Below, one piece after another: positions 844 to 61,425 of a DNA stretch of 64,000 nucleotides. The translations under genes were made by a program, and so were the position numbers. The notes under the pieces were generated by a model that was given only the letters and a program-made list of their open reading frames with translations, was not told where the DNA came from and ran no database searches. Source of the stretch: an uncultured Chloroflexia bacterium. Lineage in GTDB: Bacteria; Chloroflexota; Anaerolineae; Anaerolineales; UBA4823. The stretch lies in assembly GCA_963726375.1 (NCBI GenBank), contig CAVSCE010000011.1, positions 210,914 through 274,913 of the forward strand. Reading direction: 5' to 3'. Position 1 is the first letter of the stretch; every line of letters begins with the position of its first letter.

Positions 844-1960
844 TCAATCGCCCAGGCAGATGCCCAGGTCCCGGGCGGTCAGCACCGTGTCGCAGTCGAG
901 CGGGACGGTCTTCATCCGGGTCGTAGCCAGCTCCAGCGGAACGTAACGAACCGTCGGGGGATCGAGCGCCACCATCACATCCCGCCTCCCTTCGGCGATC
1001 GCCCTCACCGCGGCTGCGCCGAACCTCAAGGCGAGCAGGCGGTCGTTGCTGGTGGGCGAGCCGCCGCGCAGCAGGTGGCCCAGAACGACCAGGCGAGTCT
1101 CTTTGCCGGTGCGCTCCTGCAGCTCGGCAGACACTTTTTCTCCGACGCCGCCGAGCCGCTCAGCCCTGCCAGCTTCCCTGCTCATCACGCTCAGCGAGCC
1201 TCCCTCTGGCGCCGCCCCTTCGGCGACGACGACCAGCGAGAACCGCCGGCCTTGCTGTTCCCGATCGTTGATTTTTTTCACCACGCTTTCGATCCGGTAG
1301 GGGATCTCAGGGATCAGGATCGCGTCCGCCGAGCCGGCAATTCCGCGATTCCAGCGCGATCCAGCCGGCGTAGCGCCCCATCACCTCGACGACGATCACC
1401 CGCTGGTGGGACGAAGCAGTCGAGTGCAGCCGGTCCAGGCATTCGCAGGCGAACGAGACGGCGGTGTCAAAGCCAAACGTGACCACGGTCTGGTCCAGGT
1501 CGTTGTCGATCGTCTTTGGGACGCCGACCACCCAGAGCCCTTTTTCAGCCAGCGCGTGGGCGATCTCCATCGAGCCGTCGCCGCCGATCGAGATCAGTGC
1601 GTCGAGCTCGTGCAGGTTAAAAAGCCGGACCAGCTCGTCGGAGCGGTCCACTTCTTCCACCGTCCCATCCGCACGGCGGACAGGGTAGCGCAGCGGGTTG
1701 CCCCGGTTCGTCGTCCCCAGGATTGTCCCGCCCAGATGGGTGATCCCGCGCACGTCGTCGCGCAGCAGCCGGACCAGCCCACCGCCCGGGAACCGCTCGG
1801 GGAGCAGCAGCCCGTTGTAACCGTCGCGAATGCCGTAGATCTCCCAGCCGAGCTCGATCGCAGTCAGCGTCGCCGCCCGGATGACCGCGTTCAACCCTGG
1901 AGCGTCGCCCCCGCCGGTGCAGATCGCGATCCTGCGAATTTTCGGTGTTTTGCGTGGCAT
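844..1960 (-). CDS. pfkA: 6-phosphofructokinase (PfkA family), split by a 1-nt frameshift near 1310
   Basis: ORF 1307..1960 is the N-half (CTGGGDAPGLN, GGDGS, PKTIDND, MGR). ORF 844..1284 is the C-half. At the junction ..AGWIALES continues as GIAGSADAILIPEIPYRIESVVKK only in the other frame. Confidence 0.85.
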
Positions 1961-1980: not shown

Positions 1981-3139
<1,159 letters not shown>

Positions 3140-8986: not shown

Positions 8987-8995
8987 AATAGAAAA

Positions 8996-9042
8996 CTCCT
9001 TGTCGTTGTGTGAAATGATATGAATCTCCTGCGACAAGGGAG
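8996..9042 (-). promoter_or_regulatory. 5'-UTR hairpin able to sequester the aldolase Shine-Dalgarno
   Basis: In the minus-strand RNA, CUCC(C)UUGUCG pairs with CGACAAGGAG (10 bp, one bulge, 26-nt loop). The 3' arm contains the AAGGAG that lies 9 nt upstream of the ATG at 8986. Confidence 0.35.
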
Positions 9043-9197
9043 GCGATGGCAGAACGGGTGTGGGCTCCGGCAGAGTCGGATTGGAGGCGTAATCCGCCCG
9101 GCCTGAGAAATCGGTTTTTGAAACCCCCGCTGCATGTTTAAAATAGCATGATCGCAGACAGATGTCAAGTCCCAATTTTCACGATTGACCAGTTGAT

Positions 9198-9209
9198 TCA
9201 CGAATGTGA
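9198..9209. promoter_or_regulatory. Candidate operator TCACGAATGTGA in the divergent aldolase/ABC intergenic region
   Basis: One mismatch to the 12-mer at 6107 and 20689. It lies inside the spacer after a TTGACC hexamer (9185..9190). Confidence 0.35.
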
Positions 9210-9252
9210 CATTAGAAAAGCTCATTTAAGACCTTTTCAGGGCACCCGCTCA

Positions 9253-9292
9253 TTGACAAACTCACATATGCATGCTATATTCACGTATGTGA
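9253..9292 (+). promoter_or_regulatory. Sigma70-like promoter with an overlapping operator, facing the ABC importer operon
   Basis: TTGACA (9253..9258), 17 nt spacer, then TATATT (9276..9281). TCACGTATGTGA (9281..9292) overlaps the -10 and TCACATATGCAT (9262..9273) lies in the spacer. Confidence 0.45.
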
Positions 9293-9652
9293 GAGATTGC
9301 TGGTCGGCATTCATGTTTGACAGAACAGTCGGTAAGTCTTGCGCCCATTCTGGTGAAATCCAGCGGTTTTTCTCTAGCGTATTTCCATCCTCTTGCGATA
9401 AAATGAGTATGCGACAGGCAGGAAGATAGCATGTCCTGCGGGTGTGGTGAATTCAGAATGACCATTAAGTTTAGATCGGGAACTCGTCCCGGCCAGCTGG
9501 AGGCAAAAGAAAGCTGCCAGGCGCGCCTTGATCTGCTTTATGGATAGAGGAAGGAGGTGGATGCGTTTCTAACCTGGTCCAAGATTTCTCGGAATTTGAC
9601 GGCACCTGAAATAGAGTATCGATACCAATAATTGAAGGATAATGAGGAGAAA

Positions 9653-11138
9653 ATGCAAAAACATCGATTTTTCAACACCGTTATGGTAGCGCTCTTGCTG
9701 CTTGGCTTGCTTGCAGCAGCTTGCGCCCCGGCTCCTACCCAGGCCCCGGCGCCCGCCGCAACCGAAGCTCCTGCTGCTCCAGCTCCCGCTGAACCCGTTG
9801 CTACCGAAGCTCCGGCTGAACCCGTTGCTACCGAAGCTCCAGCCGAGCCGGTCGCGACCGAAGCGCCTGCAGCCGAAGCGCCGAAGTCCGATGTCGAGCT
9901 GGTCTTCGTCTGGCACTCCGGTGGTCTCGGCGAGAAGTTTGAAGAGCTCGCTCAGCAGTACACCGCGTTGACCGGCGTAAAAGTTCGTGCGGACCTGGTC
10001 CCCTACGGCCCGCAGTGGCACGACAAGATCGCGGCCGAGTTCGCAGCCCAGGGCTCCGGCTTTGACCTGGCGATGTTCGACAGCCAGTCGATGTCCGAGT
10101 TTGCCTCCGGCGGTCACGTCGTTCAGCTGAACGACTACATCGACCAGAGCGAGCTGATCAGCGCTGAGGACTTCACCCCCGCTGCCCTGCGCCAGTACGG
10201 CGAGTATCCGGAAGGCTCTGGCAACATCTTCGCCCTCCCGATCAACCAGGACTGCATGGGCCTCGTCTACCGCAAGGACCTCTTTGAGGATCCGGCCGAA
10301 AAGGAAGCCTTCAAGGCCAAATACGGCTACGAGCTGGCTGTCCCCACCACCTACATGATGATGCGCGACATCGCTGAATTCTTCACCCGCCCCGAAGAGA
10401 ACCTCTACGGCCTGGCCTCCTACGGCAGCCGCGACTACGATGCGGTCACCAGCCCGCTGGACGGCGTGATCTGGTCGTACGGCGGAGCCCTCTGGGATCC
10501 TGAGACCAAGATGGCCCAGGGCGTGATCAACTCCGAGACCAACGTCAAGGCGCTTGAGTATCTACGCCGACCTGTTCCAGTTCATGCCCCCCGGCGCATC
10601 TGCCTGGTTCTACGACGAAGTCAACAACGCGGTCCACACCGGCATCGTCGCAATGGCGATCAACTGGTACTACTTCTTCTTCGTCCACGCCGACCCGGCG
10701 ATCAACCCCTACGCCGACAAGATGGGCTACGACGTACTCCCCGGCGAGATGGTCGACGGCAAGCTCAACCGCGGCATTTCCGTCGGCGGTCAGGGTCTTT
10801 CGATCTCGGCTTACTCGAAGAACATCGAAGAAGCCTGGAAGCTGCTCGAGTGGTTCATGACCAACGAGATCCAGTGGCAGTGGACCGAGATCGGCGCACA
10901 GACCGGTCGGGTCGACATCCTCACCGATCCAAGATATGTCACGACCAAGCCATGGAACGAGACCTTCCCTGAGTCGATGAAATATGTCCAGGATTACTGG
11001 CACGTGATCGAGTATCCTGAGCTGCTCGACATCTGGCAGAAGTACGCCAGCCTGGTCGTCTCCGGCGAAATGGGCGCGAAGGAAGCGCTGGACGCCGTCG
11101 CCGTGGAACACCAGGCGATCATGGATCAGATGGAGTAA
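9653..11138 (+). CDS. CUT1-family extracellular sugar-binding lipoprotein of the ABC importer, frameshift near 10558
   Basis: MQKHRFFNTVMVALLLLGLLAAAC is a lipobox signal, followed by a Pro/Ala/Thr/Glu linker. ORF 9632..10972 loses sense after ..NVKALEY. ORF 10554..11138 continues IYADLFQFMPPGASAWFYDEV.. to the stop. Confidence 0.8.
9791..9871 (+). repeat. 3 x 27-bp tandem repeat encoding (EPVATEAPA)x3 in the lipoprotein linker
   Basis: GAACCCGTTGCTACCGAAGCTCCGGCT is repeated at 9791, 9818 and (diverged) 9845. It is in frame within the SBP. Confidence 0.9.
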
Positions 11139-11185: not shown

Positions 11186-11351
11186 GTAAACTTGACCCTG
11201 CTGGCGGCCCCGCAGCTATCTCAGACAAAGACCAGCTGGTGGTTGAGTCCATCACAAAGCTTGCGTTTCCCGATCTTCCACTCAAAATTCATCCCTGCCA
11301 GAAGATTGGGGACGCAAGCCCTCTAATAGATTTCTAAGTGGAGGCTGAAAC

Positions 11352-12287
11352 TTGAATACTGCCCTTCCTGCTCCTTCAGATGATAAACCCGTTGTCGTTA
11401 AACGACATGGGATGAGTGATGATGTCCTGAAAAGGGTTATGCTCGCGCCGGCGGTCCTGATCATTGTCGGCCTGGTGCTCTACCCGTTTCTTTGGGCTGT
11501 CTATTTGAGCTTTCATCAGTTTTCAATCCTGAAGAAAAAACCAGCCGTGTTTATTGGATTGGAGAATTATCAGAGCTTGCTTCACGATCCGGATATCTGG
11601 GAGCGGTTTATTTTTACCGGAAAATTTGTCTTCACAGTGGTATCGATTGAGCTGGTTTTCGGTTTCTTGATCGCATATTTCATTCACACGCAGTTCAAAG
11701 GGGGCGGCGTCTGGGTCACCCTGCTTCTGCTGCCGATGATGATCGCGCCGGTTATTTCTGGATTGTTCTGGAAATACATCCTCTCGAACAACTGGGGGGT
11801 GATTAACTATTTCATTAAGGGAATTCTGGGATTGCCTGAAGTCCAATGGTTGAGTACGAACACGGCGGGGTTTTGGTCGATTGTGATCGTCGACGTCTGG
11901 ATGTGGACCCCGTTCATGATGCTGCTCAGCCTGGCGGGTCTTTCGGCGGTTCCGACATACCTTTACGAATCAGCTGAAGTGGATCGGGCGTCGTCCTGGT
12001 TCAAGTTCACACGGATCACCCTGCCGCTGTCCGCTCCATTAATCTTGCTGGCGGTCGTTTTCCGGACGATTGATGCCTTCAAGACGACGGATATCGTCTG
12101 GGTGTTAACAGCCGGCGGACCCGGCTCTTCCACAGAGACTATCGCATACGCCCTCTACAAGCTGGCGTTTGCGTTCTACAAGACAGGCGAGGCTTCAGCC
12201 CTGGCGGTCATGCTCTTGATCACAGTGATCGGCCTGAGCATTATCCTTGTGCGCGTGCTGAACCGCGCCAAGCAAGCGACACAGTAG
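11352..12287 (+). CDS. ABC sugar transporter permease (MalF/UgpA-like)
   Basis: Intact 311-aa ORF with a TTG start and GGAGG 8 nt upstream. It is a multi-TM protein with an EAA-type loop (..ESAEVDRASSWFKFTRITLP..). Confidence 0.85.
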   Translation: MNTALPAPSDDKPVVVKRHGMSDDVLKRVMLAPAVLIIVGLVLYPFLWAVYLSFHQFSILKKKPAVFIGLENYQSLLHDPDIWERFIFTGKFVFTVVSIELVFGFLIAYFIHTQFKGGGVWVTLLLLPMMIAPVISGLFWKYILSNNWGVINYFIKGILGLPEVQWLSTNTAGFWSIVIVDVWMWTPFMMLLSLAGLSAVPTYLYESAEVDRASSWFKFTRITLPLSAPLILLAVVFRTIDAFKTTDIVWVLTAGGPGSSTETIAYALYKLAFAFYKTGEASALAVMLLITVIGLSIILVRVLNRAKQATQ

Positions 12288-12299
12288 ACGGAGCAAGCC

Positions 12300-13142
12300 A
12301 TGCATTCGAAAAAACTCTTAAAACGCATTCTTGCCTGGGCGCTGCTGATCCTCCTGATCGTGATCTTCATCTTTCCGTTTTACTGGATGGTCGCCACAGC
12401 CCTGAAAACCCGGATTCAGATCGTCAATATCCCCCCCCTGTTTATCTTCACGCCGACCTTAGATAATTTCAAAGGTGTCTTCTTCACAAGCTCCGGGTTG
12501 GAGACGAACTTTAAAGAATTCTTCAAGATGAGCATCATCATCAGCGCCCTGAGCACCTTTTTCTCGGTTCTCTTCGGCTCGCTGGCAGCCTACAGCGTCT
12601 CGCGCTTCAAGATGAAGGGTAAAGATGACCTGATGTTCTTCATCCTGAGCACGCGCATGCTCCCGCCAATCGCCACGCTGGTGCCGCTGTTCTTGATGTA
12701 CCGTCAGCTCGGCCTTTCCGACACGGTGCACGGGATGGTTCTGCTGTATACGATGTTCAACCTGGGCTTTACGACCTGGATGATGAAGAGCTTCTTCGAT
12801 GAGATCCCGATCGAATATGAGGAAGCCGCGCTGATGGACGGCTACAGCCGCTGGGAAGCGTTCGTGAAAGTAGTCCTGCCTCAATCGGTCACCGGCCTGG
12901 CAGCCTCGGCTGTCTTCTGCCTGATCGCGAGCTGGAACGAATTTGTTTACGGATCTATCCTGACGACCCGTTATGCCCGTACGGTCCCGCCGGCGGTGGC
13001 AGTGCGCGTCGGTCACGAAGGATACGAGTGGGGCAAGATCGCCGCGACGGCCTTCATGTACGTCTTACCAGTATTGATTTTCACCTTCCTGGTTCGAAAA
13101 TCCTTGCTGCGCGGTCTCACCTTTGGCGCGATCAAGAAATAG
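12300..13142 (+). CDS. ABC sugar transporter permease (MalG/UgpE-like)
   Basis: Intact 280-aa ORF with an EAA motif (EEAALMDGYSRWEAFVKVVLP), immediately after the first permease. Confidence 0.85.
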   Translation: MHSKKLLKRILAWALLILLIVIFIFPFYWMVATALKTRIQIVNIPPLFIFTPTLDNFKGVFFTSSGLETNFKEFFKMSIIISALSTFFSVLFGSLAAYSVSRFKMKGKDDLMFFILSTRMLPPIATLVPLFLMYRQLGLSDTVHGMVLLYTMFNLGFTTWMMKSFFDEIPIEYEEAALMDGYSRWEAFVKVVLPQSVTGLAASAVFCLIASWNEFVYGSILTTRYARTVPPAVAVRVGHEGYEWGKIAATAFMYVLPVLIFTFLVRKSLLRGLTFGAIKK

Positions 13143-13182
13143 GCCGAAGAGGATCGATTCTTCAGAGAGTGAGATACCAAAC

Positions 13183-14277
13183 ATGGCTAAAGTCGAATTA
13201 CGTGATATTGTCAAGAGATACGGTCAAAATGTCGCCGTCAATCATGTCAACCTGACCGTCGAGGACGGCGAATTCCTGATCTTACTGGGTCCATCAGGCT
13301 GTGGGAAAACGACCAGCTTGCGCAGTATCGCCGGGTTGGAAGCTCTGGATGGAGGCGAAATACTGATCGATGACGTCGTCGTCAATGACAAACGTGCCTC
13401 AGATCGAGATACAGCTTTTTGCTTCCAGCAGTACGCCCTGTACCCCCACCTGACTGCATTTGAAAATATCGCCTTCCCGCTCCGAACGCAGCAGATGGCC
13501 AATCAGGAAGTGGAACACCGCGTGACTGAGGTTGGAAAGCAGCTTCAGATTGAAGAGATCTTCACAAGAAAACCCAGCAAATTGAGCGCCGGCGACCAGC
13601 AGCGCGTCGCCCTGGCGCGCGCGATGGTCCGGCAGCCGAAAGTCTATCTGATGGATGAGCCGCTGTCCAACCTGGACGCTCAGCTGCGCGTCGATATGCG
13701 CGGCGAGCTCCGCCGGCTTCAAATAACCAACAGAATCACCACCATATATGTTACTCACGACCAGACCGAAGCGATGGCCATGGCCGACCGGATTGCGATC
13801 ATGAACCTGGGCGTGCTCCAGCAGGTCGGCACCCCGGACGATGTCTATACCTATCCGGTAAACTTGTTTGTGGCGAATTTCATCGGCAGTCCCAGCATGA
13901 ATTTCATCAATTGCGAATATGTTGCCGCCGATCATGGTGTGCGCATTCCGACGGAGACCGATTCGGTCGTCTACAGACTTCCGGAAGATATCAAGCAATC
14001 GGTTTCTGGTTTGAAAGACGGCGATGAGCTGGTTTTGGGCATCCGGCCGGAAGACGTGTACATTCATACGGAACCGGTGGATGATGGTTTTGAAGTCAAA
14101 TACATCCTGTTGGAAGCCCTGGGATCTGAGAACATCCACCATGTCGGTCACAGTAATCTGTTTGTGATTGCTCGAACCTCTCCGGCTGATGTCTTCGAAG
14201 AAGGCCAGTCCCTCTGGATTTCTTTCGAGCATGCTGGTATCCGGCTTTTCGATCGAAAAACCGAGATGGCGATTTAG
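13183..14277 (+). CDS. MalK/UgpC-like ABC ATPase 1, with an atypical LSAGD signature
   Basis: Starts MAKVELRDIVKRYG. Has Walker A GPSGCGKTT, signature LSAGDQQRV, Walker B VYLMDEPLS, H-loop THDQ and a C-terminal MalK-type regulatory domain. Confidence 0.85.
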   Translation: MAKVELRDIVKRYGQNVAVNHVNLTVEDGEFLILLGPSGCGKTTSLRSIAGLEALDGGEILIDDVVVNDKRASDRDTAFCFQQYALYPHLTAFENIAFPLRTQQMANQEVEHRVTEVGKQLQIEEIFTRKPSKLSAGDQQRVALARAMVRQPKVYLMDEPLSNLDAQLRVDMRGELRRLQITNRITTIYVTHDQTEAMAMADRIAIMNLGVLQQVGTPDDVYTYPVNLFVANFIGSPSMNFINCEYVAADHGVRIPTETDSVVYRLPEDIKQSVSGLKDGDELVLGIRPEDVYIHTEPVDDGFEVKYILLEALGSENIHHVGHSNLFVIARTSPADVFEEGQSLWISFEHAGIRLFDRKTEMAI

Positions 14278-19689: not shown

Positions 19690-20572
19690 TCAAAGTTGTT
19701 GAGCCGCGCCAGCCATATTCAGCTCGGCGATCGCGCCTGTAAAATCTTGCTCGTGGACGATCTTCTGGATCGCGCGGATCATTTTTTCGGGGTGGGGGTG
19801 CTGCCAGACGTTCCGGCCGAAAGTAATCCCCGAGGCGCCCCGCTGGATGCAGACCAGCACATCATGCAGCATCTCCTCGACGCACTGGCTTTTTCCGCCG
19901 CCCAGCAGCACGATCGGAGCCGGGCAGGACTCTGCGATCCTTTCCATCTCCTCCGGCACGTCCGGGAAATCGCTTTTCACCACGTCTGCCCCGATCTCGA
20001 ACGCGATCCGAGCCATATCCGCCAATATTTTCGAAATCTTTAATCGGCTTTCCCTCGAACCGCAGCCCCCAGGTGGTCGGCTCGATCATCACCGGGATCC
20101 CCAGTCGATGGCAGCTCTCGATGGTCGCTGCGGCAAAAGCCATGTTGTCGATCTGGCGGTTGCTCTGCTCCTGACCGAAGATCAGGCAAATCTTGACCAT
20201 ATCCGCGCCCAGGCGGGCCGCCTCTTCGGCGGAAATGGTGGGCACCTGACCGTCGGTCCTGTCGCCGCCCGGGAAGTTCGCAAACAGTGGGAAATCGACC
20301 GCCAGGATCACCGCCGGCGACTCTCTGCCGGTGAGCAGATATCCAAAGCGGCGCAGCGCCCCGGGATTCACCAATATACCTTCAGGCTTGCCGGCTAAAA
20401 CCTGCTCGAGGCGTTCGCCCAGGTTCTCCAGGCCGGCAACAGCGCCCATCGCGACGCCGTGGTCAACCGCGACTGCGACGCACCGGCCTGTCTCTTTATT
20501 AAACAGACGGCTGGTGCGGATTGTGACTCCATAATCAAAAGCCTGGTTCAGCATGAAGGACACCTCGTTCAT
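19690..20572 (-). CDS. Class-I aldolase, DeoC/FbaB(DhnA)/LsrF family (copy 2), frameshift near 20042
   Basis: ORF 19862..20572 makes sense up to ..FEGKPIK. ORF 19690..20025 continues KISKILADMARIAFEIGADVVKSDFP (putative Schiff-base Lys)..FGRNVWQ. Confidence 0.78.
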
Positions 20573-20632
20573 GGATGGATGGAATTTCAGATTATTTTGG
20601 TGGTCCGCCTGGATCGAGCAGCGGATGTTCGA

Positions 20633-20700
20633 TTGACAAATCCGAAAATGAGCGTTAAACTAGCAATAATTACATTTGTGATATTATATCACAAATGTGA
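20633..20700 (+). promoter_or_regulatory. Sigma70-like promoter followed by a 27-bp perfect palindrome, upstream of the PFP-type pfk
   Basis: TTGACA (20633..20638), 17 nt spacer, then TAAACT (20656..20661). The palindrome ACATTTGTGATAT-T-ATATCACAAATGT spans 20672..20698 and contains TCACAAATGTGA at 20689..20700. Confidence 0.55.
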
Positions 20701-20728
20701 CGAAATAGGCAGGTCTCAGGAGGTTGTC

Positions 20729-21946
20729 TTGACGAAGCTCAAAGGGAATCTTGTTGTCGGGCAGTCGGGTGGGCCGAGCGCTGTGATCAACGGCTCGGTC
20801 TGCGGTGTTGTTCAGGAGGCATTTCGACACCCGGAAATCGAAGAGGTTTACGGTATGCGCCATGGGATCGAAGGGTTGCTCCGCGAAGACCTGCTGGACT
20901 TTCGCAAGGAAGCGCCGGATGATATTGATGGGCTGCGCAAGACGCCTTCTTCTGCATTGGGATCCTGCCGCTTCAAGACCAGCGATGACGACCTGGAGCA
21001 GATCGTTCGGATCTGCCGGCTGCATAACATCCGCTTCTTCATGTATGCCGGCGGTGGAGATTCGATGGATACCGCAGACAGGCTTTCAAGAGCCGCATCG
21101 GCTCAAAATTTTGAGATGCGGATCATCGGCGTCCCTAAAACGATTGACAACGATCTTCCTGTCACCGACCACTCTCCGGGATACGGCTCGGCGGCGCGCT
21201 ATATCGCGACGATATGTACCGAGATGAAGCGAGATGCGATCGCACTGCGTCACACTGAAAGGGTCAAGATCCTCGAGACGATGGGCCGCAACAGCGGCTG
21301 GCTGGCAGCAGCCTCGGCGCTCGCCGATGATTACGCCCCGGACCTGATCTATCTCCCAGAACGGCGGTTGACAGAAGACCAGATCCTGGCGGATATCGAC
21401 GACTTGCTCCGCACAAAGGGTTTCGTCTTCCTGGCCGCTAACGATGGATTGAGAAAGCCGGACGGGAGCTTCATCTCGATGAATACCGATCCGCTGAACA
21501 CCGATGCCTTCGGCCACCCGGAGCCGGGTGACCTGGGCAAATATCTCGCCGATCTGGTGATGACGAAGCTGAAGGTCAAAGCGCGCGCCGATAAACCCGG
21601 GATCATCCAGCGCTGCGCCGGGCAGTTTATCTCTCCAGCGGATGCGGACGAAGCTTATCGCGTCGGGCAGCGGGCGGTCATCCAGGCTGCCGCCGGCGAG
21701 AGCGGGCAGATGATCACGCTCGTCCGCGAGCCTGGCGAGCCTTACGTCTGCTCTACCGGCGCTGTCCCGCTCGGTCTGGTCTCGAACCTTGAAAAATTAG
21801 TCCCAGGCGAATACATCCATCCGTCTGGAAACCAGGTTGCGGAAAAATTTAAGGAATATGCTCGCCCGCTGATCGGCGGGCCTCTCCCGGATTATGTCAC
21901 GCTGAAAGCTTTTCCGGTCAAGAAGCTTCTGAAGCAGCCATCCTGA
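20729..21946 (+). CDS. Phosphofructokinase, long PFP(PfpB)-like type; phosphoryl donor not resolvable from sequence
   Basis: TTG start with AGGAGG 5 nt upstream, within ORF 20459..21946. Has GQSGGPSAVINGSV, GGGDSMDT, GVPKTIDNDL and MGRNSGW. Length 405 aa. Confidence 0.8.
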   Translation: MTKLKGNLVVGQSGGPSAVINGSVCGVVQEAFRHPEIEEVYGMRHGIEGLLREDLLDFRKEAPDDIDGLRKTPSSALGSCRFKTSDDDLEQIVRICRLHNIRFFMYAGGGDSMDTADRLSRAASAQNFEMRIIGVPKTIDNDLPVTDHSPGYGSAARYIATICTEMKRDAIALRHTERVKILETMGRNSGWLAAASALADDYAPDLIYLPERRLTEDQILADIDDLLRTKGFVFLAANDGLRKPDGSFISMNTDPLNTDAFGHPEPGDLGKYLADLVMTKLKVKARADKPGIIQRCAGQFISPADADEAYRVGQRAVIQAAAGESGQMITLVREPGEPYVCSTGAVPLGLVSNLEKLVPGEYIHPSGNQVAEKFKEYARPLIGGPLPDYVTLKAFPVKKLLKQPS

Positions 21947-52979: not shown

Positions 52980-54128
52980 TCAGTCAGGTGTGATAAATGT
53001 GATCACCACCGTCATCCCCCAGCGCAGGCGCGGATCGGTCTCGTTCAGCTTGACCCGCACGGTGTAGGTGATGTCGCCCCGTTTTTCAACGGAAACCCTG
53101 CTGATTTCGGTCACTTCGCCGTCGATCACCAGGTCAGGGATCGCGTCCGGGACGATGGTGACCTTCTGACCGACTTCGATGTCGACGACTTCGATCTCCG
53201 TCAGGTCGTCGGTCTCGGCGAAAAGCTCGCGCAGGTCGGCAATCTGCATTACAGGGACGCCGGCCGCCGCGTTTTGGCCGATAATCAGATCGTTATCGAC
53301 CACCGTGCCGTCGATCGTGGATTTGAGCTCCAGATTGTCCAGGTTCGCATTCGCGGCGTCCAGGTTCGCTTCAGCTGCTTTGATACGGGCTTCGGCAGCC
53401 TCCACCTGGTCCTTGTCCGGCCCGCTTTGCAGGTCCTGGTAGTCATTCATCGTCTCTTCCAGGCGGGTTTCGGCTTCGTGCAGCTTGGTTTCGAGCTGCA
53501 GCCAGCGCACAGCGGTGTTGTAATCGCTCTGGGCCGAATCCAGGTCTTCTTTCAGATCCTCGCGAGTGTCGTTGCCCGAATCCCAATACTTCACCGGCTC
53601 GAATTTGTCGCGGGCGGCATCAAGGATGACTTTCATCGCCGCGATCGCCTCGAGCGGGGTCATCCCTTTCATGTTCTGCGGGACGGTGAAGTTATCGATC
53701 GCGTACTGGGCGTCTTTCAAGGCTTTGTTTGCGTCGGACATCGCGGCCGCGGCGTCTGACTGCGCCAGCGCCAGGTTATCTTCAAGCTTCTGGCGGGCTT
53801 GTTTGGCTGCGACCAGCTCTGCTTCAGCGGCGGCGATTGCCGCTTCGATCTGTTCGCGGTTGCCGAGCCGGGCGACGACCTGCCCGTTTGTGACCTGGTC
53901 GCCTTTTGCTGCCATCAATTCTTCAACCTGACCGCTGCTGAAAAAAGCCAGCTGGGCGTCTTCTTTTGGGACGATGTAACCCTCGGCGACGACATCCGTG
54001 TCCGAGATTACGATTGGGATTGGTGTGGGGGTCGGTTGGCCTCCCGATCCAGGCAGCCCACCGCAGCCAGCAGTGAGCAGGCTGGCCAGGATCAAAACGG
54101 ACAACAGCGGCAGCAGTTTGGTTTTCAT
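52980..54128 (-). CDS. HlyD/MacA-family periplasmic adaptor (membrane-fusion) lipoprotein
   Basis: Starts MKTKLLPLLSVLILASLLTAGC (lipobox) within ORF 52980..54299. Has a long coiled-coil (AAEAELVAAKQARQKLEDNL..) and beta-barrel segments. Confidence 0.8.
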   Translation of the reverse strand: MKTKLLPLLSVLILASLLTAGCGGLPGSGGQPTPTPIPIVISDTDVVAEGYIVPKEDAQLAFFSSGQVEELMAAKGDQVTNGQVVARLGNREQIEAAIAAAEAELVAAKQARQKLEDNLALAQSDAAAAMSDANKALKDAQYAIDNFTVPQNMKGMTPLEAIAAMKVILDAARDKFEPVKYWDSGNDTREDLKEDLDSAQSDYNTAVRWLQLETKLHEAETRLEETMNDYQDLQSGPDKDQVEAAEARIKAAEANLDAANANLDNLELKSTIDGTVVDNDLIIGQNAAAGVPVMQIADLRELFAETDDLTEIEVVDIEVGQKVTIVPDAIPDLVIDGEVTEISRVSVEKRGDITYTVRVKLNETDPRLRWGMTVVITFITPD

Positions 54129-54199
54129 GAACATCTTCTCCAGAGTTTTACCTGTGTGAATTCGCATGCTAATTATAAATCGAATGAGAGAAAAATCGA

Positions 54200-56593
54200 T
54201 CACTGATACGCCAGGCTTTCGCGCACGCTGATCTGCGTCGCGCTGCGCGCCGGCAGCCAGCTCGCCACGATCGAAAGAAACGTTATGATCATGAACCACA
54301 GGATGATGCCGGTCGGCTCGAACTTATAAAGGATGTCGATCTGAAAGGCGCTTCCCAGCACGCTGGCCATCATCTTGCCGGCCGGGATCGAAAGGGGTAC
54401 TGCGATCGCCCAGCTCAGCCAGCCCAGGATCAGCCCTTCGCCGATGAACATTTTAAAGATCGTCCACGAGGAAGCGCCGATCGCCCGCATCACGCCGATC
54501 TCCCTGCGGCGCTCCATGACGCTCAGCGAGAGTGCGCCGCTCAAGGCGATGCTGCCGACTGCGCCGATCACGACCGCCATGATCCCAAGCAGCACGAGCA
54601 GAAAATTGAACTGCTGGACGAATTGGTTTGCCGTGGCAGTGGTGCTGTCCGACCCTATCCCGAAGATGCCTCGCTGCGCGCTGACTTCCATCCCATTTTC
54701 ATTGTAATATTCGCGCAGCGCCCTGGCGATCGACTCTTCGGCTTCCACCCCGGATTCCTTCGTCTTGATCCAGAGCGACTGTGCCTTTCCGCTGCTGCCG
54801 GTGTCGTGCAGCAGCACGTCGCGGTTCACCAGCGTGAATGTGGTCAGGATCGGGTCAAAGATCAGCCCGACGACCTGGAAATCGCGCTCCTTCTTCTCGC
54901 TGTAGCGGACTGTGACCCAGTCGCCGACCTTGATCCCCTCATCTTCAGCCAGCTTCTTGTTCAGGACGATCGCATAAGTGTCGTTTGGATCGAGCCAGCG
55001 CCCGCCGCGCAGCTGGTAGCCGTACGCATCGGTCGGGAGCGGGACGCCCATAACCTGGACCTGCTCATCATCGTCGGTTGCCTCCGATCCCTTGAGACGG
55101 ATGGACGCGCCGGTTAACCCCCACATTTCGACTGCTTCGATCCCTGGAAATTTCATGGTCAGCTCTTCGGTGGTCTCGATCCGCTCCGGGTCGGTCAGGA
55201 TGAATGTGATATTTGTGTCCAGGATCTCGAACAGCACATCCTTGATCGTATAGGAGACCGAGTCGCGCACGCTGACGACCATCATGAAGACCAGCGCGCT
55301 CATCACCAACGCAAGTTCCAGCATCACCACCCGGCGCTTGTGCCGGAAGGTGCTGCTGACGGTCAGGATCGCCAACCGCGAGATGAACTTGATCCTGGTC
55401 AGGATTTTCTCGAGCAGGCCGACGCCCGCCGAAAGGCCGTAAGTGCTGATCGCTTCCCTTACTGTGATCCGCGCTGCTGAAAAGATCGGGAAAAGCGCCA
55501 CCAGCATCGGCGCGAGCAGCGCGATCGAGCTGGCGAGTATCAGTGAAATCGGATCCACCGTGAATGAGCCTGGATCTGCGCCAAAGCTGTTGATCAGCCA
55601 GCTGGAGATCGCCCAGCCGCCCAGAATGCTGAGCGGCAGCGAGACCAATAACGAGAGCAGGCCGTAAATGATCACCACCACCAGATAGAAGCGGGCGATT
55701 TGCCCGGTGCGTGCCCCGATCGCTTTCATCACGCCGATCTGGTCGGTCTGAGCGGAGATGATCGAGGTGATCGTATTGTAGACCAGCAGCAGCCCCAGGA
55801 TCAACGCGAACAACCCCAGAATGCCGAGCAGCATGAAGATCCCGTCCAGCGAATCCTGGAAGAAGTGCTTATTCGGGTCGGTGATCCAGCGCCCGGAATC
55901 ATACCCCATCCTGCGCAGCCGGTCGTCGATCCGGTCAGCCAGCTCGGTGACTTTGTCCTCGTCCCATGCTGCGGCTTTGATCAGCAACCGCCCGAAATCC
56001 TTGTCGCCGACCAGGTATTCGTAATAGTCCTGGTCGACGTAGAACTGGGCCGTGCCGCCGAATTGGGCGGGCGCTACCATCTGGTCGTATATTTTCCCGC
56101 TGGTTTGGACCTGATACTCTTTATTATCGATTCGCATCGTGACTGGCGCGTTATCTGGGATGCCGAAGATCAGCGCGTCCTGCCCGACCGCGACGATCTT
56201 ACCGCTGGGCCATTCGCCGTTGACCAGCTCGAGCCTGTTCATATTCTGATTGCTGAAGTCGGTTCGAGCCGTCAGCGTGCCCTGTTCCCATTCATCATCG
56301 GGGTTCACTCGCCATTCAACCGTGGCGCTGTTAAATCCCTCATATTCAGTCACACCGTCGATATGCCCGACTGTGATCAGCTCGTCCTCATCGATCGGCA
56401 GTCCGACGAAGACGTTGATCATCGCCGGGTTCATCCCTGTCCACATTTTCTGCATCATCGGGATGACCAGATTGCGCGTCCCCAGGATCATGCCGATCGA
56501 CGCCGAGCCGATCCCGATGATCAGCATGACCTGCAACGTGCGCGCTTTGTGAGACCAGAGATCGCGCAGAATTTTATATCGAAGGCTGCCCAT
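54200..56593 (-). CDS. MacB/FtsX-family ABC transporter permease (duplicated FtsX, 797 aa)
   Basis: Intact ORF with two large extracytoplasmic domains, each followed by FtsX-type TM bundles (..GVMKAIGAR.., ..GVMRAIGAS..). Confidence 0.85.
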   Translation of the reverse strand: MGSLRYKILRDLWSHKARTLQVMLIIGIGSASIGMILGTRNLVIPMMQKMWTGMNPAMINVFVGLPIDEDELITVGHIDGVTEYEGFNSATVEWRVNPDDEWEQGTLTARTDFSNQNMNRLELVNGEWPSGKIVAVGQDALIFGIPDNAPVTMRIDNKEYQVQTSGKIYDQMVAPAQFGGTAQFYVDQDYYEYLVGDKDFGRLLIKAAAWDEDKVTELADRIDDRLRRMGYDSGRWITDPNKHFFQDSLDGIFMLLGILGLFALILGLLLVYNTITSIISAQTDQIGVMKAIGARTGQIARFYLVVVIIYGLLSLLVSLPLSILGGWAISSWLINSFGADPGSFTVDPISLILASSIALLAPMLVALFPIFSAARITVREAISTYGLSAGVGLLEKILTRIKFISRLAILTVSSTFRHKRRVVMLELALVMSALVFMMVVSVRDSVSYTIKDVLFEILDTNITFILTDPERIETTEELTMKFPGIEAVEMWGLTGASIRLKGSEATDDDEQVQVMGVPLPTDAYGYQLRGGRWLDPNDTYAIVLNKKLAEDEGIKVGDWVTVRYSEKKERDFQVVGLIFDPILTTFTLVNRDVLLHDTGSSGKAQSLWIKTKESGVEAEESIARALREYYNENGMEVSAQRGIFGIGSDSTTATANQFVQQFNFLLVLLGIMAVVIGAVGSIALSGALSLSVMERRREIGVMRAIGASSWTIFKMFIGEGLILGWLSWAIAVPLSIPAGKMMASVLGSAFQIDILYKFEPTGIILWFMIITFLSIVASWLPARSATQISVRESLAYQ

Positions 56594-56595
56594 GA

Positions 56596-57342
56596 TTAAT
56601 AACCCGTCCAGTTGACCTCACCGACGAATTCGTCGCGTGTGATCCGGCCATCGACGATCTCGACCACGCGCGGGACGCGCCTGGCGAGCTCTTTATCGTG
56701 CGTGACCATCAACAGCGTCTTGCCCTCGTCCACGAGCCGGTCGAAAAGGTCAAAGACATCGTAAGCGGTGCGCTGGTCCAGGTTGCCCGTCGGCTCGTCT
56801 GCGACCAGGATCTGCGGATCGTTCGCCAGGGCGCGCGCGATCGCAGCGCGCTGCTGCTGTCCGCCGGAAACTGTGCCGGGGAGCTTGTCCGCCTGGTCTT
56901 CCAGCCCTACGATGCTCAGCAGGTCCAAAGCGCGTTCCTTGCGCTCGCGCGGGGAATACTTCCTGGCGAAATCCATCGGGAGCATCACGTTTTGAAGCAG
57001 GGTCAGCGCAGGCAGCATCTGGAAGAACTGGAAGATGATCCCGATGTGCTGGCCTCGCCATGCTGCCAGCTTGTTCTCGTTCATTTTATGTACTTCCAGC
57101 CCGGTGACGATCACTTCGCCGTGGGTGGGCCGGTCGATTCCGGTGATCATGTTTAAGAGCGTCGATTTGCCGTTCCCAGATGGTCCGACAATCGTCACAA
57201 ATTCGCCGCTGTTGACATTGAAGGAAATCCCTTTCAAGACGGTCACCTCGCCCCCGCCGACCGGAAAGGTTTTAACCACGTCCTTTACCTGAACCAGCGC
57301 CCCGTTCGCCCCGTTCCCATTTTTACCGTTTCCGTCACTCAT
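56596..57342 (-). CDS. ABC transporter ATP-binding protein (MacB/LolD-type)
   Basis: Has [36 protein letters not shown] and THD. Its stop abuts the permease start. Confidence 0.9.
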
Positions 57343-57423
57343 CGCTTGCTCCTTACCTGAAAATCAAGCAAAAAAGCTTGATTTCGGGCGGGTCGTCCCT
57401 CCAACCGGCCCGAATCGATAAAA

Positions 57424-58674
57424 TTAACAGCCGCTGCCTGTCCGGTCTGCGGACCAGATCAACTCCATGCGGGGTTTGTACTCGCGGGCGTCATACCACT
57501 TTTCGACATCAACCATTTTTACGCTTTTGGTTGCCAGGGCGAGTTCAACGTCGCACCACATCCGCTCATGAATGAAAGCGGTCATGCGCCCGAAGATGCC
57601 ATTGGAGAGCAGGCTCGCGGCAGTCAGCGCAAAATTCGCCGCGCCCAGCAGGTCCTGGCCGTCTGGTGAGCCGGTCCGGAGCAGGTAGGTCAGCGATTGA
57701 AGGAAGACTTCTTCGCCGGTAATGTGCGCCATCAGCTGAGCTGCGATCATCCCGCTGCCGACCAACCCACCATATCCGCTCAGCATCTCTTCGCTCAGGT
57801 GGACCCGGCGCGGCGGCGGGAGTTTTTCGTGTTCCGGGATCTGCGAAAGCTCTGCAGGGCTTTCTGCCGAGATCAGCCGGGCATATTTTTGGGCTTTTTC
57901 GGCCTGAGGCTGGGTCCCATTGCAGACCAGAGCCACAGCATAGTTAGCAGGCGTCTGGTGCTTGTCCTGTGTGATGAGGTAAGCCAGCAGGTCGGGGTCG
58001 TAAGGGACTTCCGGGATCAGCACCCGGTCCACTCCTGCCAGCAGCGCCATCAGCAGCGTGCTGTATCCAGATTTGGCTGCAAACGTCTCAATCACGACCA
58101 GCTGCTCGCGCGAGCCGGCCAGGGCGCGCAGCTCGTGGATGAACGCCACCCCGCGCGCCAACCCGGTGCTGAACCCGAGCGTGTAATCCGTCCCGTGGAT
58201 ATTGTTGTGGATAGTCTTGGGGATTGCGATGATCGGGGCGCCCAGCTCGCTCAGATGGGCGGCAAAATTGAGCGTGTCGTCATCGCCGATCACGATCAGG
58301 GCTCGATAGCCCAGCCGCTCGATGACCTTAAGGATGTGGTTGGTCAGGTCCTGCGTTTCCAGCCTGGCATCAGACAGGTGCGGAGGGACAAGGGAGCGCG
58401 GGGTACGGCGCGGGTCTAGCCGCGAGGAATGGAAGAATGAGCCCGGAGTCCGGTCGATCGGGCGGACGATATTCTTGTTCAGCTCGATAAAGTGATCGCT
58501 GTAAGTTGATGGGCTGTCCGGATTGTAGTGGATCAAACCTTCCCAGCCCTTGCGCACCCCGATCGGCTCGAAACCAAGATCGATCGCGCGGTAGACCAGG
58601 CTCTTCAGGCACATGTTCAATCCCGGCACGTCCCCGCCGCCAGTGAGAATCCCGACACGTTTGCTCATGGCCAT
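57424..58674 (-). CDS. Divergent phosphofructokinase-family protein with substituted catalytic aspartates
   Basis: Intact 416-aa ORF with GILTGGGDVPGLN and VIGDDDT. The PKTIDND motif reads PKTIHNN. Confidence 0.75.
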   Translation of the reverse strand: MAMSKRVGILTGGGDVPGLNMCLKSLVYRAIDLGFEPIGVRKGWEGLIHYNPDSPSTYSDHFIELNKNIVRPIDRTPGSFFHSSRLDPRRTPRSLVPPHLSDARLETQDLTNHILKVIERLGYRALIVIGDDDTLNFAAHLSELGAPIIAIPKTIHNNIHGTDYTLGFSTGLARGVAFIHELRALAGSREQLVVIETFAAKSGYSTLLMALLAGVDRVLIPEVPYDPDLLAYLITQDKHQTPANYAVALVCNGTQPQAEKAQKYARLISAESPAELSQIPEHEKLPPPRRVHLSEEMLSGYGGLVGSGMIAAQLMAHITGEEVFLQSLTYLLRTGSPDGQDLLGAANFALTAASLLSNGIFGRMTAFIHERMWCDVELALATKSVKMVDVEKWYDAREYKPRMELIWSADRTGSGC

Positions 58675-58944
58675 CTTGCGCTCCTTAATATGCTATGTTG
58701 TTATTTACGCAATTCTGAAAAATAAGTTTAACATGAAATGCGGATGTTAGGAAGGAATTCGATATATGAGACCGGATTTTCCGATTAACTTTTCGTTTTC
58801 TTAATAATTTGGGGGAGGGGTGATCTGAACTCGCTGTTATGTTGAGTATAATTTCCTGGAATTTGCAGCACAGGCAGCCTGAAATGTCTTCAGGTCTTGC
58901 GGCTTACGGTTCAGATGCAGGTACAAATCGATCGGAGATTGAAC

Positions 58945-59520
58945 ATGAGCGAAGTGCGTATCCGCGCCCTCGTCCCTGATCTGGGAGAGGATTTTCTGGA
59001 TTTCTTCGACCATTCCGCTTTTTCGGATAATCCGGAATGGGCAAGCTGTTACTGCCAGTTCTACCTGATTGACCCGCAGGGCAAGCCCTGGGACGATCGA
59101 ACTGGTGGAGAGAACCGGTTGTCCGCAGCCGATAAGCTCGCCGCTGGAGAGATGCCCGGTTTTCTTGCTTTCCTGGATGAAAAAGCGGTAGGTTTTTGCT
59201 GCGCCGCTCCTCGGCGAAACTTTCCCCTGCTTGCTGGCATTCCGGAGCTTGCCGCCACGGATGCAGATCAGGTTGGCTCGGTGGTCTGTTTCATCGTGGC
59301 TCCAACATACCGGGGCCGGGGGATTGCATCGGCGCTGTTGCAGGCTGCCTGCCAGGGTCTCCGGGAAGCCGGAATCCGCTGGGTGGAAGCTTACCCCAGG
59401 ATAGGGACCTCAGAAGCTGCCGCAAATTGCCACGGTCCGCTGCAGATGTACCTGGACGAAGGATTTAAAACGGTGAAGGAGTTCCCGACCTTCCAGATCG
59501 TACGGAAGGAGCTGGTGTGA
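58945..59520 (+). CDS. GNAT-family acetyltransferase
   Basis: Starts MSEVRIRALVPDLGEDFLDFF (ATG 58945, GGAGA upstream) within ORF 58897..59520. Has VAPTYRGRGIASALL. Confidence 0.75.
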   Translation: MSEVRIRALVPDLGEDFLDFFDHSAFSDNPEWASCYCQFYLIDPQGKPWDDRTGGENRLSAADKLAAGEMPGFLAFLDEKAVGFCCAAPRRNFPLLAGIPELAATDADQVGSVVCFIVAPTYRGRGIASALLQAACQGLREAGIRWVEAYPRIGTSEAAANCHGPLQMYLDEGFKTVKEFPTFQIVRKELV

Positions 59521-59637
59521 TTGGGCTGGCTTCTTTCGATTTCAGCCGCTGTCCCCCGCGGTTATGAGCGCCTCAGGCCATCCTAAGCTCCGCCTCGGGA
59601 TTCCTGCTGCATCTTCGATTGCCCTGAACCAATCCTC

Positions 59638-60337
59638 TCACCAGATTCGCGGTATCAGCCGAAAGCGGACGCGCTTGCGCGTATTCCCGGTAGCCCTCCA
59701 GCTCATCCTGCAGGGTTTTATCCTCCAGGTCGGTGCGTTTGACCAGCACAATCGTCAGAAATATCGCCGGAAGCATCGCCCAGCTCGAATCCAGCAGGAT
59801 CGGAGTCGCCAGGGAAGCCAGCAGCCCGCCGGCATAACCGGGGTGCCTCACCCAGCGGTAAGGGCCGCTCGAGATCACCTTCTGGCCGCGCTCGGTCTGG
59901 ATCCGCACCACGCCGGAGAAAAAGCGGTTTTCGATCAGCGCATAGCTGGAAAACGCGTAACCCGCCAGGATCAGGATCAGCGCGAGGATCTTGGCTGTCC
60001 GGCTGAAGGCGGGGGACCATCCGTAAAGCTGGTCCAACCCGGCGACGATCATGATCAGGATGCTGGCGAGGCTGAACAGCGGGGCGAGTTTCTTGTCCCA
60101 TTCCTTGGCGTCTTCGTGCTGCAGGGAGCGGGCGCGCTCTGCGATCAGGTCCGGGTGGCGCCGGGCTGCCAGAATCCGGCTGATAATAAATCCCAGGATT
60201 GCGATGATCGCGTAAATCCAGGCTTCTAACCAGCTCCAATCGCGGGAGATCAGCAGCGGCAGGCAGGGGACGATGATGACGAACAGCAGCAGCTGGATGA
60301 GGACTCTAAAAGTGAAGATTTTTGGTTTTTGATCCAT
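59638..60337 (-). CDS. Isoprenylcysteine carboxyl methyltransferase (ICMT)/phospholipid-MT-family membrane protein, frameshift near 59682
   Basis: ORF 59573..60337 has GPYRWVRHPGYAG and EDKTLQDELEGYREYAQ. The family-typical end RVRFRLIPRIW-stop appears one frame over and stops at 59638. Confidence 0.75.
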
Positions 60338-60540
60338 TTAAGATTTCCCTTTATAAAATGCCAAAGCGTTTCATTGAAAACGGGGACCTTACGATTTTAT
60401 ACCTTTAACCATCGCCTGAGAATAGCAGATCATCGCAGCGACCGCACATGAGTCAGATCGAGCGCGACCCGATTCGGGCAGCTTTCAAATGAGAATCCGG
60501 GATAAAATTCATTTAGATCTGATCATCAGGAGTGAAAATT

Positions 60541-61425
60541 ATGGAGTTCCCTCGGCAGGATACCGTGATCTCCCATCTCATCGAATGGTCCGGGCAGCGT
60601 CTCGACGTGCGTGCCGCGATCCTGACCAGCTCACGCGCCGGCTCGGTCGCTCCCGTCGACCTGCTCTCCGATTACGACGTGATCTTCGCGGTGGAAGACG
60701 TTCACCCTTATTTCGATTCTCGGAAGTGGTTGGAGGATTTCGGCAGCGTCCTGGTGCTCTGGCGCGATCCGATCCGGCTGGAATACGGGCTGGAGCGCTT
60801 CGCCTATATCACCCAGTATGAGAGCGGCCTCAAGATCGACTTCACGTTGATGGCGAAGGGCATCCTGGCACAGGTCGCAAAAAAGGCAACCCTGCCGGAC
60901 GAGCTTGACGTCGGCTACCAGGTTCTGCTCGACAAAGACGGGCTGACCGCCGGGCTGAAACCGCCGACTCACCGGGCGCATATCCCCGCGCCGCCGACCG
61001 AACCCGAATACCTTTATCAGATCGAGACCTTTTTCCACGAGCTGACCTACGTCGCCAAATACCTGTGCCGGGACGAGCTGATGCCAGCCAGGGCGATCTT
61101 CGAAGAGGCGAAGGTCGACCACCTGCGGCGGTTGCTCGAATGGCGGATCGAGATCGAGTGCGGCTGGACGTTCAAGCCGGGCGTGTACGGGCGGTTCCTG
61201 AAATCAAAGCTGGATAACGAGACCTGGCAGGAGCTGGAAGCCACCTGCGCCGGCCCAGGGATTGAAGAAAGCTGGAATGCGCTCTTTGCGGCGGCGAGGC
61301 TTTTCCGGCGGATTGCAATTGAGGCGGGACAGGCGCTCAGTTATCCCTACCCTGACGAGATGGACAGACGGATGGCGGTTTACCTGTCGGAGATGAGGGC
61401 TTTAAGGCTGCCTGGGACTGAATAG
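60541..61425 (+). CDS. Aminoglycoside 6-nucleotidyltransferase, ANT(6)/AadK family
   Basis: ATG 60541 has AGGAG 9 nt upstream (the ORF track starts at GTG 60532). Has ..ILTSSRAG..SDYDVIF.., GLKIDFTL, VLLDKDG and the helical C-domain pattern of AadK-like enzymes. Confidence 0.75.
   Translation: MEFPRQDTVISHLIEWSGQRLDVRAAILTSSRAGSVAPVDLLSDYDVIFAVEDVHPYFDSRKWLEDFGSVLVLWRDPIRLEYGLERFAYITQYESGLKIDFTLMAKGILAQVAKKATLPDELDVGYQVLLDKDGLTAGLKPPTHRAHIPAPPTEPEYLYQIETFFHELTYVAKYLCRDELMPARAIFEEAKVDHLRRLLEWRIEIECGWTFKPGVYGRFLKSKLDNETWQELEATCAGPGIEESWNALFAAARLFRRIAIEAGQALSYPYPDEMDRRMAVYLSEMRALRLPGTE

Follow-up and report, generated by a model that had tools for sequence, protein, structure and literature searches.

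A phosphofructokinase-like protein with histidine at the general-base position and its operon linkage to a type VII ABC ATPase in Chloroflexota

The stretch analyzed here (the window) comprises 64,000 nucleotides (nt) of contig CAVSCE010000011.1 (assembly GCA_963726375.1), from an uncultured Chloroflexia bacterium. On its minus strand lies a gene of the phosphofructokinase (PFK) family (57424..58674), an uninterrupted open reading frame (ORF) that begins with ATG and encodes 416 amino acids. Next on this strand come the genes of an ATP-binding cassette (ABC) ATPase, a permease, and a periplasmic adaptor. The PFK-like protein is a member of group A of what we call the His clade. Its translation contains the motifs GILTGGGDVPGLN, IGDDDT, PKTIHNN, and GTDYTLGF. 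A sequence-only reading of the window had described an intact ORF of 416 residues with PFK markers, in which PKTIHNN stands in place of PKTIDND. Every motif that it named was found, PF00365 was matched, and the replacement holds at codon level, I-H-N-N being encoded by ATC CAC AAC AAT after ACT for the preceding T.

PF00365 scored 169.8 bits against a gathering score of 30.9, with residues 6-355 of the protein aligned to profile positions 1-276 of 277. By contrast, the protein fell under the cut-off of all 11 NCBIfam PFK models that it matched, and none of these curated families captures the His clade. The best was NF002872 (183.1 vs. 253 bits), and TIGR02483 gave 170.6 against a cut-off of 430.55. 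The AlphaFold2 model has a predicted local distance difference test score (pLDDT) of 85.8 and a predicted template modeling score (pTM) of 0.83. Its top Foldseek matches were a pyrophosphate (PPi)-dependent PFK (PDB 9cir), BsPFK (3pfk), and EcPfkA (1pfk), each with a probability of 1.00. Target-normalized TM (template modeling) scores for the three ranged from 0.72 to 0.88, the highest being for 3pfk. On the strength of the PF00365 match and this model, the window protein is assigned to the PFK superfamily with the two-Rossmann PFK fold.

Active-site residues were numbered from alignment to Bacillus stearothermophilus PFK and Escherichia coli PfkA (a sequence identical to PDB 1pfk_A), the literature number being the sequence index minus 1. 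Sites were compared in a 96-sequence alignment, in which 46 clade representatives were set against the 46 nearest canonical relatives. In PFK, Asp127 is the general base, and Arg162 of the neighboring subunit binds the phosphate of fructose-6-phosphate (F6P) (PMC12203962). In the window protein, T125-I-D127-N128-D129 is T154-I-H156-N157-N158 (58201..58215, minus), which keeps T125 and N128, changes D127 to H156 and D129 to N158, and leaves His at the general-base position. The GGDG/GGDD loop (G101-G102-D103-G104) reads G130-D131-D132-D133 (58276..58287, minus); D103 is kept as D132, while the Gly residues at 102 and 104 are both Asp. S159-H160-[E/Q]161-R162 is represented by S188-R189-E190-Q191 (58102..58113, minus), where the cross-subunit Arg for the F6P phosphate is gone and an Arg stands two residues earlier. 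M-G-R at 169-171 is F198-A199-A200, E222 is N252, R243 is F324, and H249 is Y330. Of the F6P 6-phosphate ligands R162, R243, H249, and R252, only R252 (R333) is kept. R72 (R85), G11, D12, and the GGGDxPGxN loop are likewise retained. A competent 6-phosphofructokinase would have Asp127 and Asp129, the set of F6P ligands, and MGR with E222, and would score above an NCBIfam cut-off; the window protein does not fit this description. The sequence-only reading had named Asp127 as the catalytic base and called the second Asp conserved as well, and D127 and D129 were indeed present in all 46 canonical relatives. It was correct that two Asp residues are lost, but the change is not limited to that pair, and the whole F6P site has been remodeled.

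Phosphoryl-donor specificity in the family is signaled by GGDG vs. GGDD, by Gly vs. Lys at position 124, and by Gly vs. a larger residue at position 108 (PMC12203962). The window protein has D133, K153 (canonical Gly), and F137 at positions 104, 124, and 108, respectively, indicating that it descends from a PPi-type enzyme. We take these signatures to reflect ancestry, and perhaps binding of PPi or phosphate, rather than activity.

The substitution is shared by a large set of proteins. PKTIHNN was present in 118 of the 120 best homologues, which are 65-95% identical and come from metagenome-assembled genomes (MAGs) of Anaerolineales and other Chloroflexota. The sequence-only reading had proposed an alignment to see whether TIHNN defines a conserved subfamily, and had held that orthologues carrying TIDND would speak against it; the opposite was found. 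An exhaustive search of 1.84 billion cluster representatives added a few more clusters with His, at 42-46% identity (PKTVHNN, PKTVHND, PKSVHND), beyond which the nearest relatives have PKTMDND with GGDDT. Profile searching from the distant members uncovered a second large group (B). The TIDND region is PKTIHNN in group A, which includes the window protein, and PKTVHN[D/N/T] in group B; the GGDG loop is GDDD and GD[R/N]x, and the MGR region is ETFAA and E[I/V]LGR, respectively. In neighbor-joining analysis the His clade and both groups were each monophyletic, with bootstrap support of 100/100 for the clade, 100/100 for group A, and 99/100 for group B. Rarer variants among the database matches to the clade include PKTIRNN and PKTVYNN.

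H127 and the Asn that follows it occur in all 46 clade representatives, which span 41-95% identity. D102 is also invariant (46/46, both groups), vs. Gly in 45 of the 46 canonical neighbors, and R160 occurs in 46/46, vs. His in 44/46. Arg162 is replaced by Gln in group A and by Glu in group B, and SRE[Q/E] was found in 77 of 78 His-clade copies in genome loci. Position 243 is hydrophobic throughout the clade; this change is shared rather than diagnostic, because 17 of the 46 canonical neighbors also have no Arg there. Group A keeps the Mg ligand D103 and has lost R171, whereas group B has Arg or Asn at 103 and keeps R171. Group B also keeps LGR and E222 and has Ala or Gly at position 104; group A additionally has lost D129, E222, and MGR.

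A scan of GTDB species-representative genomes gave 235 matching loci, and the locus counts below are for the best 80 of these 235. They come from Anaerolineales, Caldilineaceae, Promineifilaceae, and one Ca. Aquidulcis (class Limnocylindria), all Chloroflexota except one. The exception (L019; JBMDXC010000617.1, 3995 bp) is labeled as a 'Candidatus Entotheonellaceae' MAG. Its 4-kb contig carries a typical group-A gene with the ATPase, so the label is most likely a binning error. Taken together, the sequence comparisons indicate that His at the general-base position marks a monophyletic clade, in these data confined to Chloroflexota and mostly to Anaerolineae. In locus L036, the His-clade gene is preceded at a distance of about 9 kb by a canonical PFK gene (3-890; PKTMDND, GGDDT, SHER), whose product shares the C-terminal '…VDVDELYDVEAYKPK…' motif. 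Origin of the clade by duplication of a Chloroflexota PPi-type PFK would be consistent with this sharing.

Downstream of the PFK-like gene in the window, across a spacer of 81 nt (57343..57423) with no terminator-like site on the minus strand, is the ATPase gene (56596..57342, minus; 248 amino acids, PF00005). No riboswitch or other known RNA was found upstream of the PFK-like gene or in the spacer, where only a sub-threshold snoRNA match, attributable to chance, was returned. The best NCBIfam matches of the ATPase were LolD, MacB, FtsE, and YbbA, all under cut-off, and its best PDB matches were MJ0796 and LolD, with which it aligns end to end; no extra docking extension was evident. The permease gene (54200..56593, minus; 797 amino acids) starts 2 nt past the ATPase stop codon. 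Its product is YbbP/ADOP-like with duplicated FtsX domains: PF02687 matched in two stretches, TIGR03434 (ADOP) and MacB were under cut-off, and MacB_PCD was matched in orthologues. The last gene (52980..54299, minus) encodes an HlyD-type membrane-fusion or periplasmic adaptor (PF16576 and PF13437; TIGR01730 under cut-off). Translation probably begins beyond the first GTG, because orthologues have about 380 amino acids. From their domain matches, the ATPase (of the MJ0796/LolD/MacB/YbbA type) and the permease are assigned to a type VII ABC module of the MacB/LolCDE/FtsEX/YbbAP kind. Since the equivalog cut-offs for LolD, MacB, FtsE, and YbbA were all missed, this is a distinct Chloroflexota ABC system. 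A candidate role in anti-phage defense was rejected; the PFK-like protein had no PADLOC match, and the matches of the ATPase and permease were generic.

Linkage to the ATPase is nearly universal in the clade. At least about 800 bp of downstream sequence is available for 76 of the 80 loci, and in 75 of these an orthologous ATPase gene (72-98% identical) lies downstream on the same strand. The gap between the two ORFs has a median of 32 nt and is 150 nt or less in 70 of 75. The ATPase is still 72-76% identical where the PFK-like protein has fallen to 44-46%. When ORFs from the 80 loci were clustered, the widely shared ones were the PFK-like protein (80), the ATPase (75), the permease of about 800 amino acids (69), and the adaptor (48), and the flanks beyond the module were not conserved. 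The sequence-only reading had placed the gene next to an efflux-type ABC system, which understated a near-universal operon partnership.

Gene order in the module varies. In the window, L001, and L002 it is PFK-like gene, ATPase, permease, adaptor. L048 has adaptor, β-propeller, PFK-like gene, ATPase, permease, with a 1-nt overlap and then gaps of 81, 4, and 0 nt. In L084 (group B) an α/β-hydrolase gene is followed by the PFK-like gene, ATPase, DUF418, an ICMT-like methyltransferase, and the permease. Many group-A loci have the adaptor gene after that of the permease; in about 25 loci it comes before the PFK-like gene instead. In 25 loci a PD40/WD40-like β-propeller of about 480-545 amino acids is encoded directly upstream of the PFK-like gene, with the HlyD-type adaptor before it (L048 8282-9919; L032 3477-4916), and the β-propeller probably partners the ABC machine outside the cytoplasm. 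Metagenomic group-B contigs (42-46% identity) keep the pairing of PFK-like and ATPase genes with gaps of 12-19 nt. Two loci depart from the pattern. In L061 the ATPase is separated from the PFK-like gene by a weak GDSL-like lipase gene (2593-3681; 28.9 vs. 32.9 bits). The PFK-like gene of L057 is an additional, unlinked paralogue, the same MAG having a linked copy as well; next after the L057 gene comes a Pat-like acetyl-CoA synthetase/GNAT fusion (11325-14015). As a control, the three nearest relatives that retain Asp had no orthologous ATPase downstream, and one adjoins an aldolase gene. A pairing so general and so resistant to rearrangement suggests that the PFK-like protein functions with the type VII ABC machine.

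Several accessory genes were noted around the module. The α/β-hydrolase gene beside the L084 operon (8886-9965) and the lipase gene of L061 are reminiscent of TesA, the partner of E. coli YbbAP. An ICMT/PEMT-like membrane methyltransferase is encoded just upstream of the module in the window (59573-60337, minus, the same strand), and a similar ICMT-like gene lies between ATPase and permease in L084 (13454-14155, plus); this family may be a recurrent accessory. GNAT acetyltransferase genes are divergent from the PFK-like gene in the window (58897-59520, plus) and in L001 (7124-7702). With L057, these neighbors could be coincidence or a hint of acetylation control. One group-B contig (L007, 6106-7585) has two tandem orthologous ATPases after the PFK-like gene, each 64% identical to that of the window.

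One lineage within the clade has lost the donor site. Position 127 in the 78 His-clade copies of the genome loci is His in 74, Gln in two (L052, L064), and Tyr in two (L056, L061). In the Gln-bearing (Q-type) genes (L052 9980-11227; L064 10001-11230), GGGD has become GGE, R72 is His, GDDD is GY[V/L]D, and H127 is Gln, which removes D12, R72, D102, D103, and H127 together. The proteins are full length and keep the acceptor-side motifs SREQ and YLLRTGxPDGQDLLGA, and their genes are still followed by the ATPase gene after about 50 nt. When the L064 protein was searched against the database, at least 25 distinct 90%-identity clusters proved to carry the four-fold signature. For the two Q-type genes from genome loci, the ratio of nonsynonymous to synonymous substitution rates (dN/dS) is 0.136, with dS at 0.96; pairs of the His-bearing (H-type) genes give a comparable 0.07-0.19. 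The Q-type gene of L052 shares one MAG with an H-type gene that has its own ATPase (L062). The Q-type proteins, which have no phosphoryl-donor or catalytic residues, are held by selection in the same operon position, and whatever keeps the protein there therefore does not need the donor site. The sequence-only reading had proposed a pseudo-enzyme or regulator, or else a kinase with altered substrate. That pair of options is supported, and purifying selection on the Q-type leans toward the first.

The closest known enzymes are the PPi-dependent and mixed-substrate group III PFKs (PF00365; TIGR02483-like; PDB 9cir from Ca. Prometheoarchaeum). The window protein has their fold, and the clade shares with PPi-PFKs GGGDxPGxN, R72, K124, T125, D104, and a non-Gly residue at 108. 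Its nearest canonical Chloroflexota relatives also share its C-terminal extension motif (…VDV..xYDAxxYKPK…). The clade differs from these enzymes in D127H, G102D, R160 with Gln or Glu at 162, a hydrophobic residue at 243, scores far under the family cut-offs, and a non-glycolytic operon. In the C-terminal half of eukaryotic PFK, the ATP pocket has disappeared and the F6P pocket now serves as the effector site for fructose-2,6-bisphosphate (PMC12203962). That half is non-catalytic yet under selection, and the Q-type proteins show the same asymmetry, with the donor side lost and acceptor motifs kept. Unlike it, the clade proteins are bacterial and stand alone, their genetic partner is an ABC ATPase, and ligand binding is a prediction.

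Among transporters, E. coli YbbP is a 10-transmembrane protein that works with two YbbA ATPases and pulls hydrophobic compounds from the membrane (PMC12646458). The window permease is similar in its length of about 800 amino acids, its duplicated FtsX domains, and its MacB-type periplasmic domains, and the occasional hydrolase genes in the operon recall tesA beside ybbAP. An HlyD-type adaptor is often present in the module, as MacA is in MacAB, and the ATPase is LolD/MacB/YbbA-like. Type VII ABC systems are known to work with the periplasmic partners EnvC, LolA, MacA, and TesA; in the literature on such systems we found no description of a cytoplasmic PFK-like component. PhoU (pstSCAB-phoU) and MlaB (MlaFEDB) are operon-encoded cytoplasmic proteins that bind or modulate ABC ATPases. 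They offer a functional model for the PFK-like protein, although there is no kinship of sequence or fold (a helical metal-binding protein in the case of PhoU, a STAS domain in that of MlaB). Literature on PFK pseudoenzymes, on PFK paralogues of Chloroflexi and Anaerolineae, and on PFK together with ABC, MacB, or FtsX yielded no account of the clade or its linkage. The 2025 superfamily review mentions no bacterial PFK group that is non-catalytic or carries His (PMC12203962). Partnership of a PFK homologue with a type VII ABC system thus appears to be undescribed; for dead PFK modules there is precedent.

Ordinary PFK activity is unlikely given the combined picture: the general base and most F6P ligands are gone, no curated model reaches its cut-off, canonical PFKs are encoded separately, and the operon is not a glycolytic one. 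We consider it an evenly balanced proposition that the window protein, derived from a PPi-type (group III-like) PFK and devoid of F6P 1-phosphotransferase activity, serves as a ligand-sensing regulator or adaptor of the YbbAP/MacB-like ABC ATPase. From sequence, structure prediction, and comparative genomics we infer the loss of PFK activity, the binding of a ligand, and a physical or functional interaction with the ATPase. In the proposed course of events, a PPi-type phosphofructokinase in Chloroflexota would have given rise to a clade no longer acting on F6P, whose gene would have entered a type VII ABC operon at a site just before the ATPase gene. The protein would act with the ATPase in the cytoplasm as a ligand-sensing regulator or adaptor. 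Its retooled sugar-phosphate pocket and, in most members, the retained phosphate/PPi-binding donor loop would couple the transporter to a metabolite. More tentatively, it may be a dedicated subunit that docks on the nucleotide-binding domains and gates the ATPase cycle according to whether a phospho-metabolite, either PPi or a sugar phosphate, occupies its retooled active-site cleft. In the Q-type the donor site is gone and the acceptor side remains, as in the eukaryotic C-terminal half; this parallel favors a ligand-sensing regulator or adaptor.

Several points weigh against a regulator or adaptor. Sharing an operon is no proof of physical contact. The donor loop (GGGDxPGxN, R72, K124, T125) and D102/H127 are strictly conserved in most members, and an active enzyme that had acquired a new substrate would be equally expected to show this. 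Because the L052 genome has an H-type copy too, the Q-type could represent a derived exception. The linkage count is inflated by shared ancestry because all loci come from one phylum, and the control set is small (three loci). The leading alternative, which we consider possible though tentative, is that the protein still transfers phosphoryl groups, probably from PPi, to a new acceptor such as a lipid-linked or hydrophobic compound or another sugar phosphate. His156, perhaps with Asp131, would then act as the base, and the substrate or product would be tied to the cargo of the transporter. The PPi-type donor residues (GGGD, R72, T125, K124, D104, and an aromatic residue at 108) are indeed conserved, G102D and D127H are coupled without exception in the 46 representatives, and Arg has moved from 162 to 160 instead of being simply lost, with R252 kept. 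The losses in the two groups are complementary and not random (D103 kept in A, R171 in B), the joint decay of donor elements in the Q-type suggests that they form one functional unit in the H-type, and lipid hydrolase-type genes occur sporadically in the operon (L061, L084). Yet the Q-type and Tyr-bearing proteins, which lack the putative catalytic His, keep their operon position and stay under purifying selection, no further biosynthetic gene recurs consistently in the module across the 80 loci, and the 2025 review gives no precedent in the PFK family for an acceptor that is not a sugar phosphate (PMC12203962). A kinase still acting on F6P or sedoheptulose-7-phosphate as a glycolytic variant, with His as general base, is improbable. 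His can in principle serve as a general base, the PFK fold and donor loop are retained, and R252 is accompanied by Y249, which 14 of the 46 canonical neighbors also have. Such a kinase is hard to reconcile with replacement of R162, R243, E222, and (in group A) M169/G170/R171, with scores under every NCBIfam PFK cut-off and separate canonical PFKs in the genome, with Q-type members that have no donor site at all, or with an ABC operon as its context, whereas one of the nearest canonical relatives adjoins an aldolase gene.

The remaining explanations bear on the neighborhood and on the gene itself. Adjacency to the ABC genes might be inherited synteny without functional meaning, the protein having an unrelated role; the single phylum and the small control set leave some room for this, but we think it improbable as well. 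The adjacency holds from 95% down to 42% identity, in at least three gene orders and with gaps of 4-100 nt, and flanking genes outside the module are not conserved. Rearranged orders and divergence to 42% identity argue against pure inheritance of the linkage. Still less probable is that the protein is a non-catalytic regulatory subunit of the organism's canonical PFK, beside which the ABC neighborhood would be incidental. Plant PFP alpha and yeast PFK subunits are analogues of such a regulatory subunit. Canonical PFKs do occur in the window, and dead PFK modules that regulate active ones are known from the eukaryotic C-terminal half (PMC12203962). However, the canonical genes are 35-56 kb away in the window, a canonical PFK lies within 10 kb in only 1 of the 80 loci (L036), and the gene is tied to the ABC ATPase and not to a PFK. 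That the motif is an isolated mutation or sequencing error, or the gene a pseudogene in decay, was ruled out as nearly as such things can be. Asp to His and Asp to Asn each take one nucleotide change, and another PFK gene in the window is frameshifted. The ORF is nevertheless intact, PKTIHNN is conserved in homologues and in hundreds of distinct clusters, and the ratio of nonsynonymous to synonymous differences (pN/pS) against a 77% identical orthologue (L010) is 0.19, indicating purifying selection.

Public databases name hundreds of clade proteins '6-phosphofructokinase.' They very probably do not catalyze the glycolytic step, and through this misnaming metabolic reconstructions of Anaerolineae and related Chloroflexota may count that step wrongly. 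In the clade a textbook active site can also be followed as it decays step by step: Asp is replaced by His, with the coupled change of Gly to Asp, and in one lineage the donor site is then lost completely. As all this took place under purifying selection, the clade is a clean natural series for studying recruitment of the PFK fold to a new role. If the regulator or adaptor proposal is true, type VII ABC systems would gain a new regulatory layer in the form of a conserved cytoplasmic partner that evolved from a metabolic enzyme, which would also give a handle on an uncharacterized envelope system that is widespread in Anaerolineae. If the protein docks on and gates the ATPase, it would be the first accessory subunit of metabolic-enzyme origin described for type VII ABC transporters, and a stand-alone bacterial parallel to the dead C-terminal half of eukaryotic PFK.

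The sequence-only reading had counted the gene as the third of the PFK family in the window, and the other two were located at 844..1960 (minus) and 20459..21946 (plus). The second encodes a TIDND PPi-PFK, at about 20726-21946 within the ORF, and passed NF010675 (450 vs. 273 bits). With this bona fide PPi-PFK, the organism has canonical PFK capacity independent of the His-clade gene. The first is a canonical TIDND gene (PFK_mixed-like) read as two ORFs (1307..1960 and 844..1284), split by one extra base near 1343 ('GAATCG[C]GGAATT'); without that base the text reads …ALESGIAGSADAILIPE…. Either the extra base is an indel from assembly or sequencing, or the gene became a pseudogene very recently. 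About 2 kb from the ABC module, a protein of the PF04439 family (streptomycin adenylyltransferase) is encoded at 60532-61425 (plus; 206.6 bits). Its family match makes it a possible antibiotic-modifying enzyme in the vicinity of an efflux-type system. The ORF at 2069-3115 (minus), immediately upstream of the frameshifted PFK gene, has in its translation 'IFADPPYNL,' which we take to be a motif typical of N6/N4 DNA methyltransferases.

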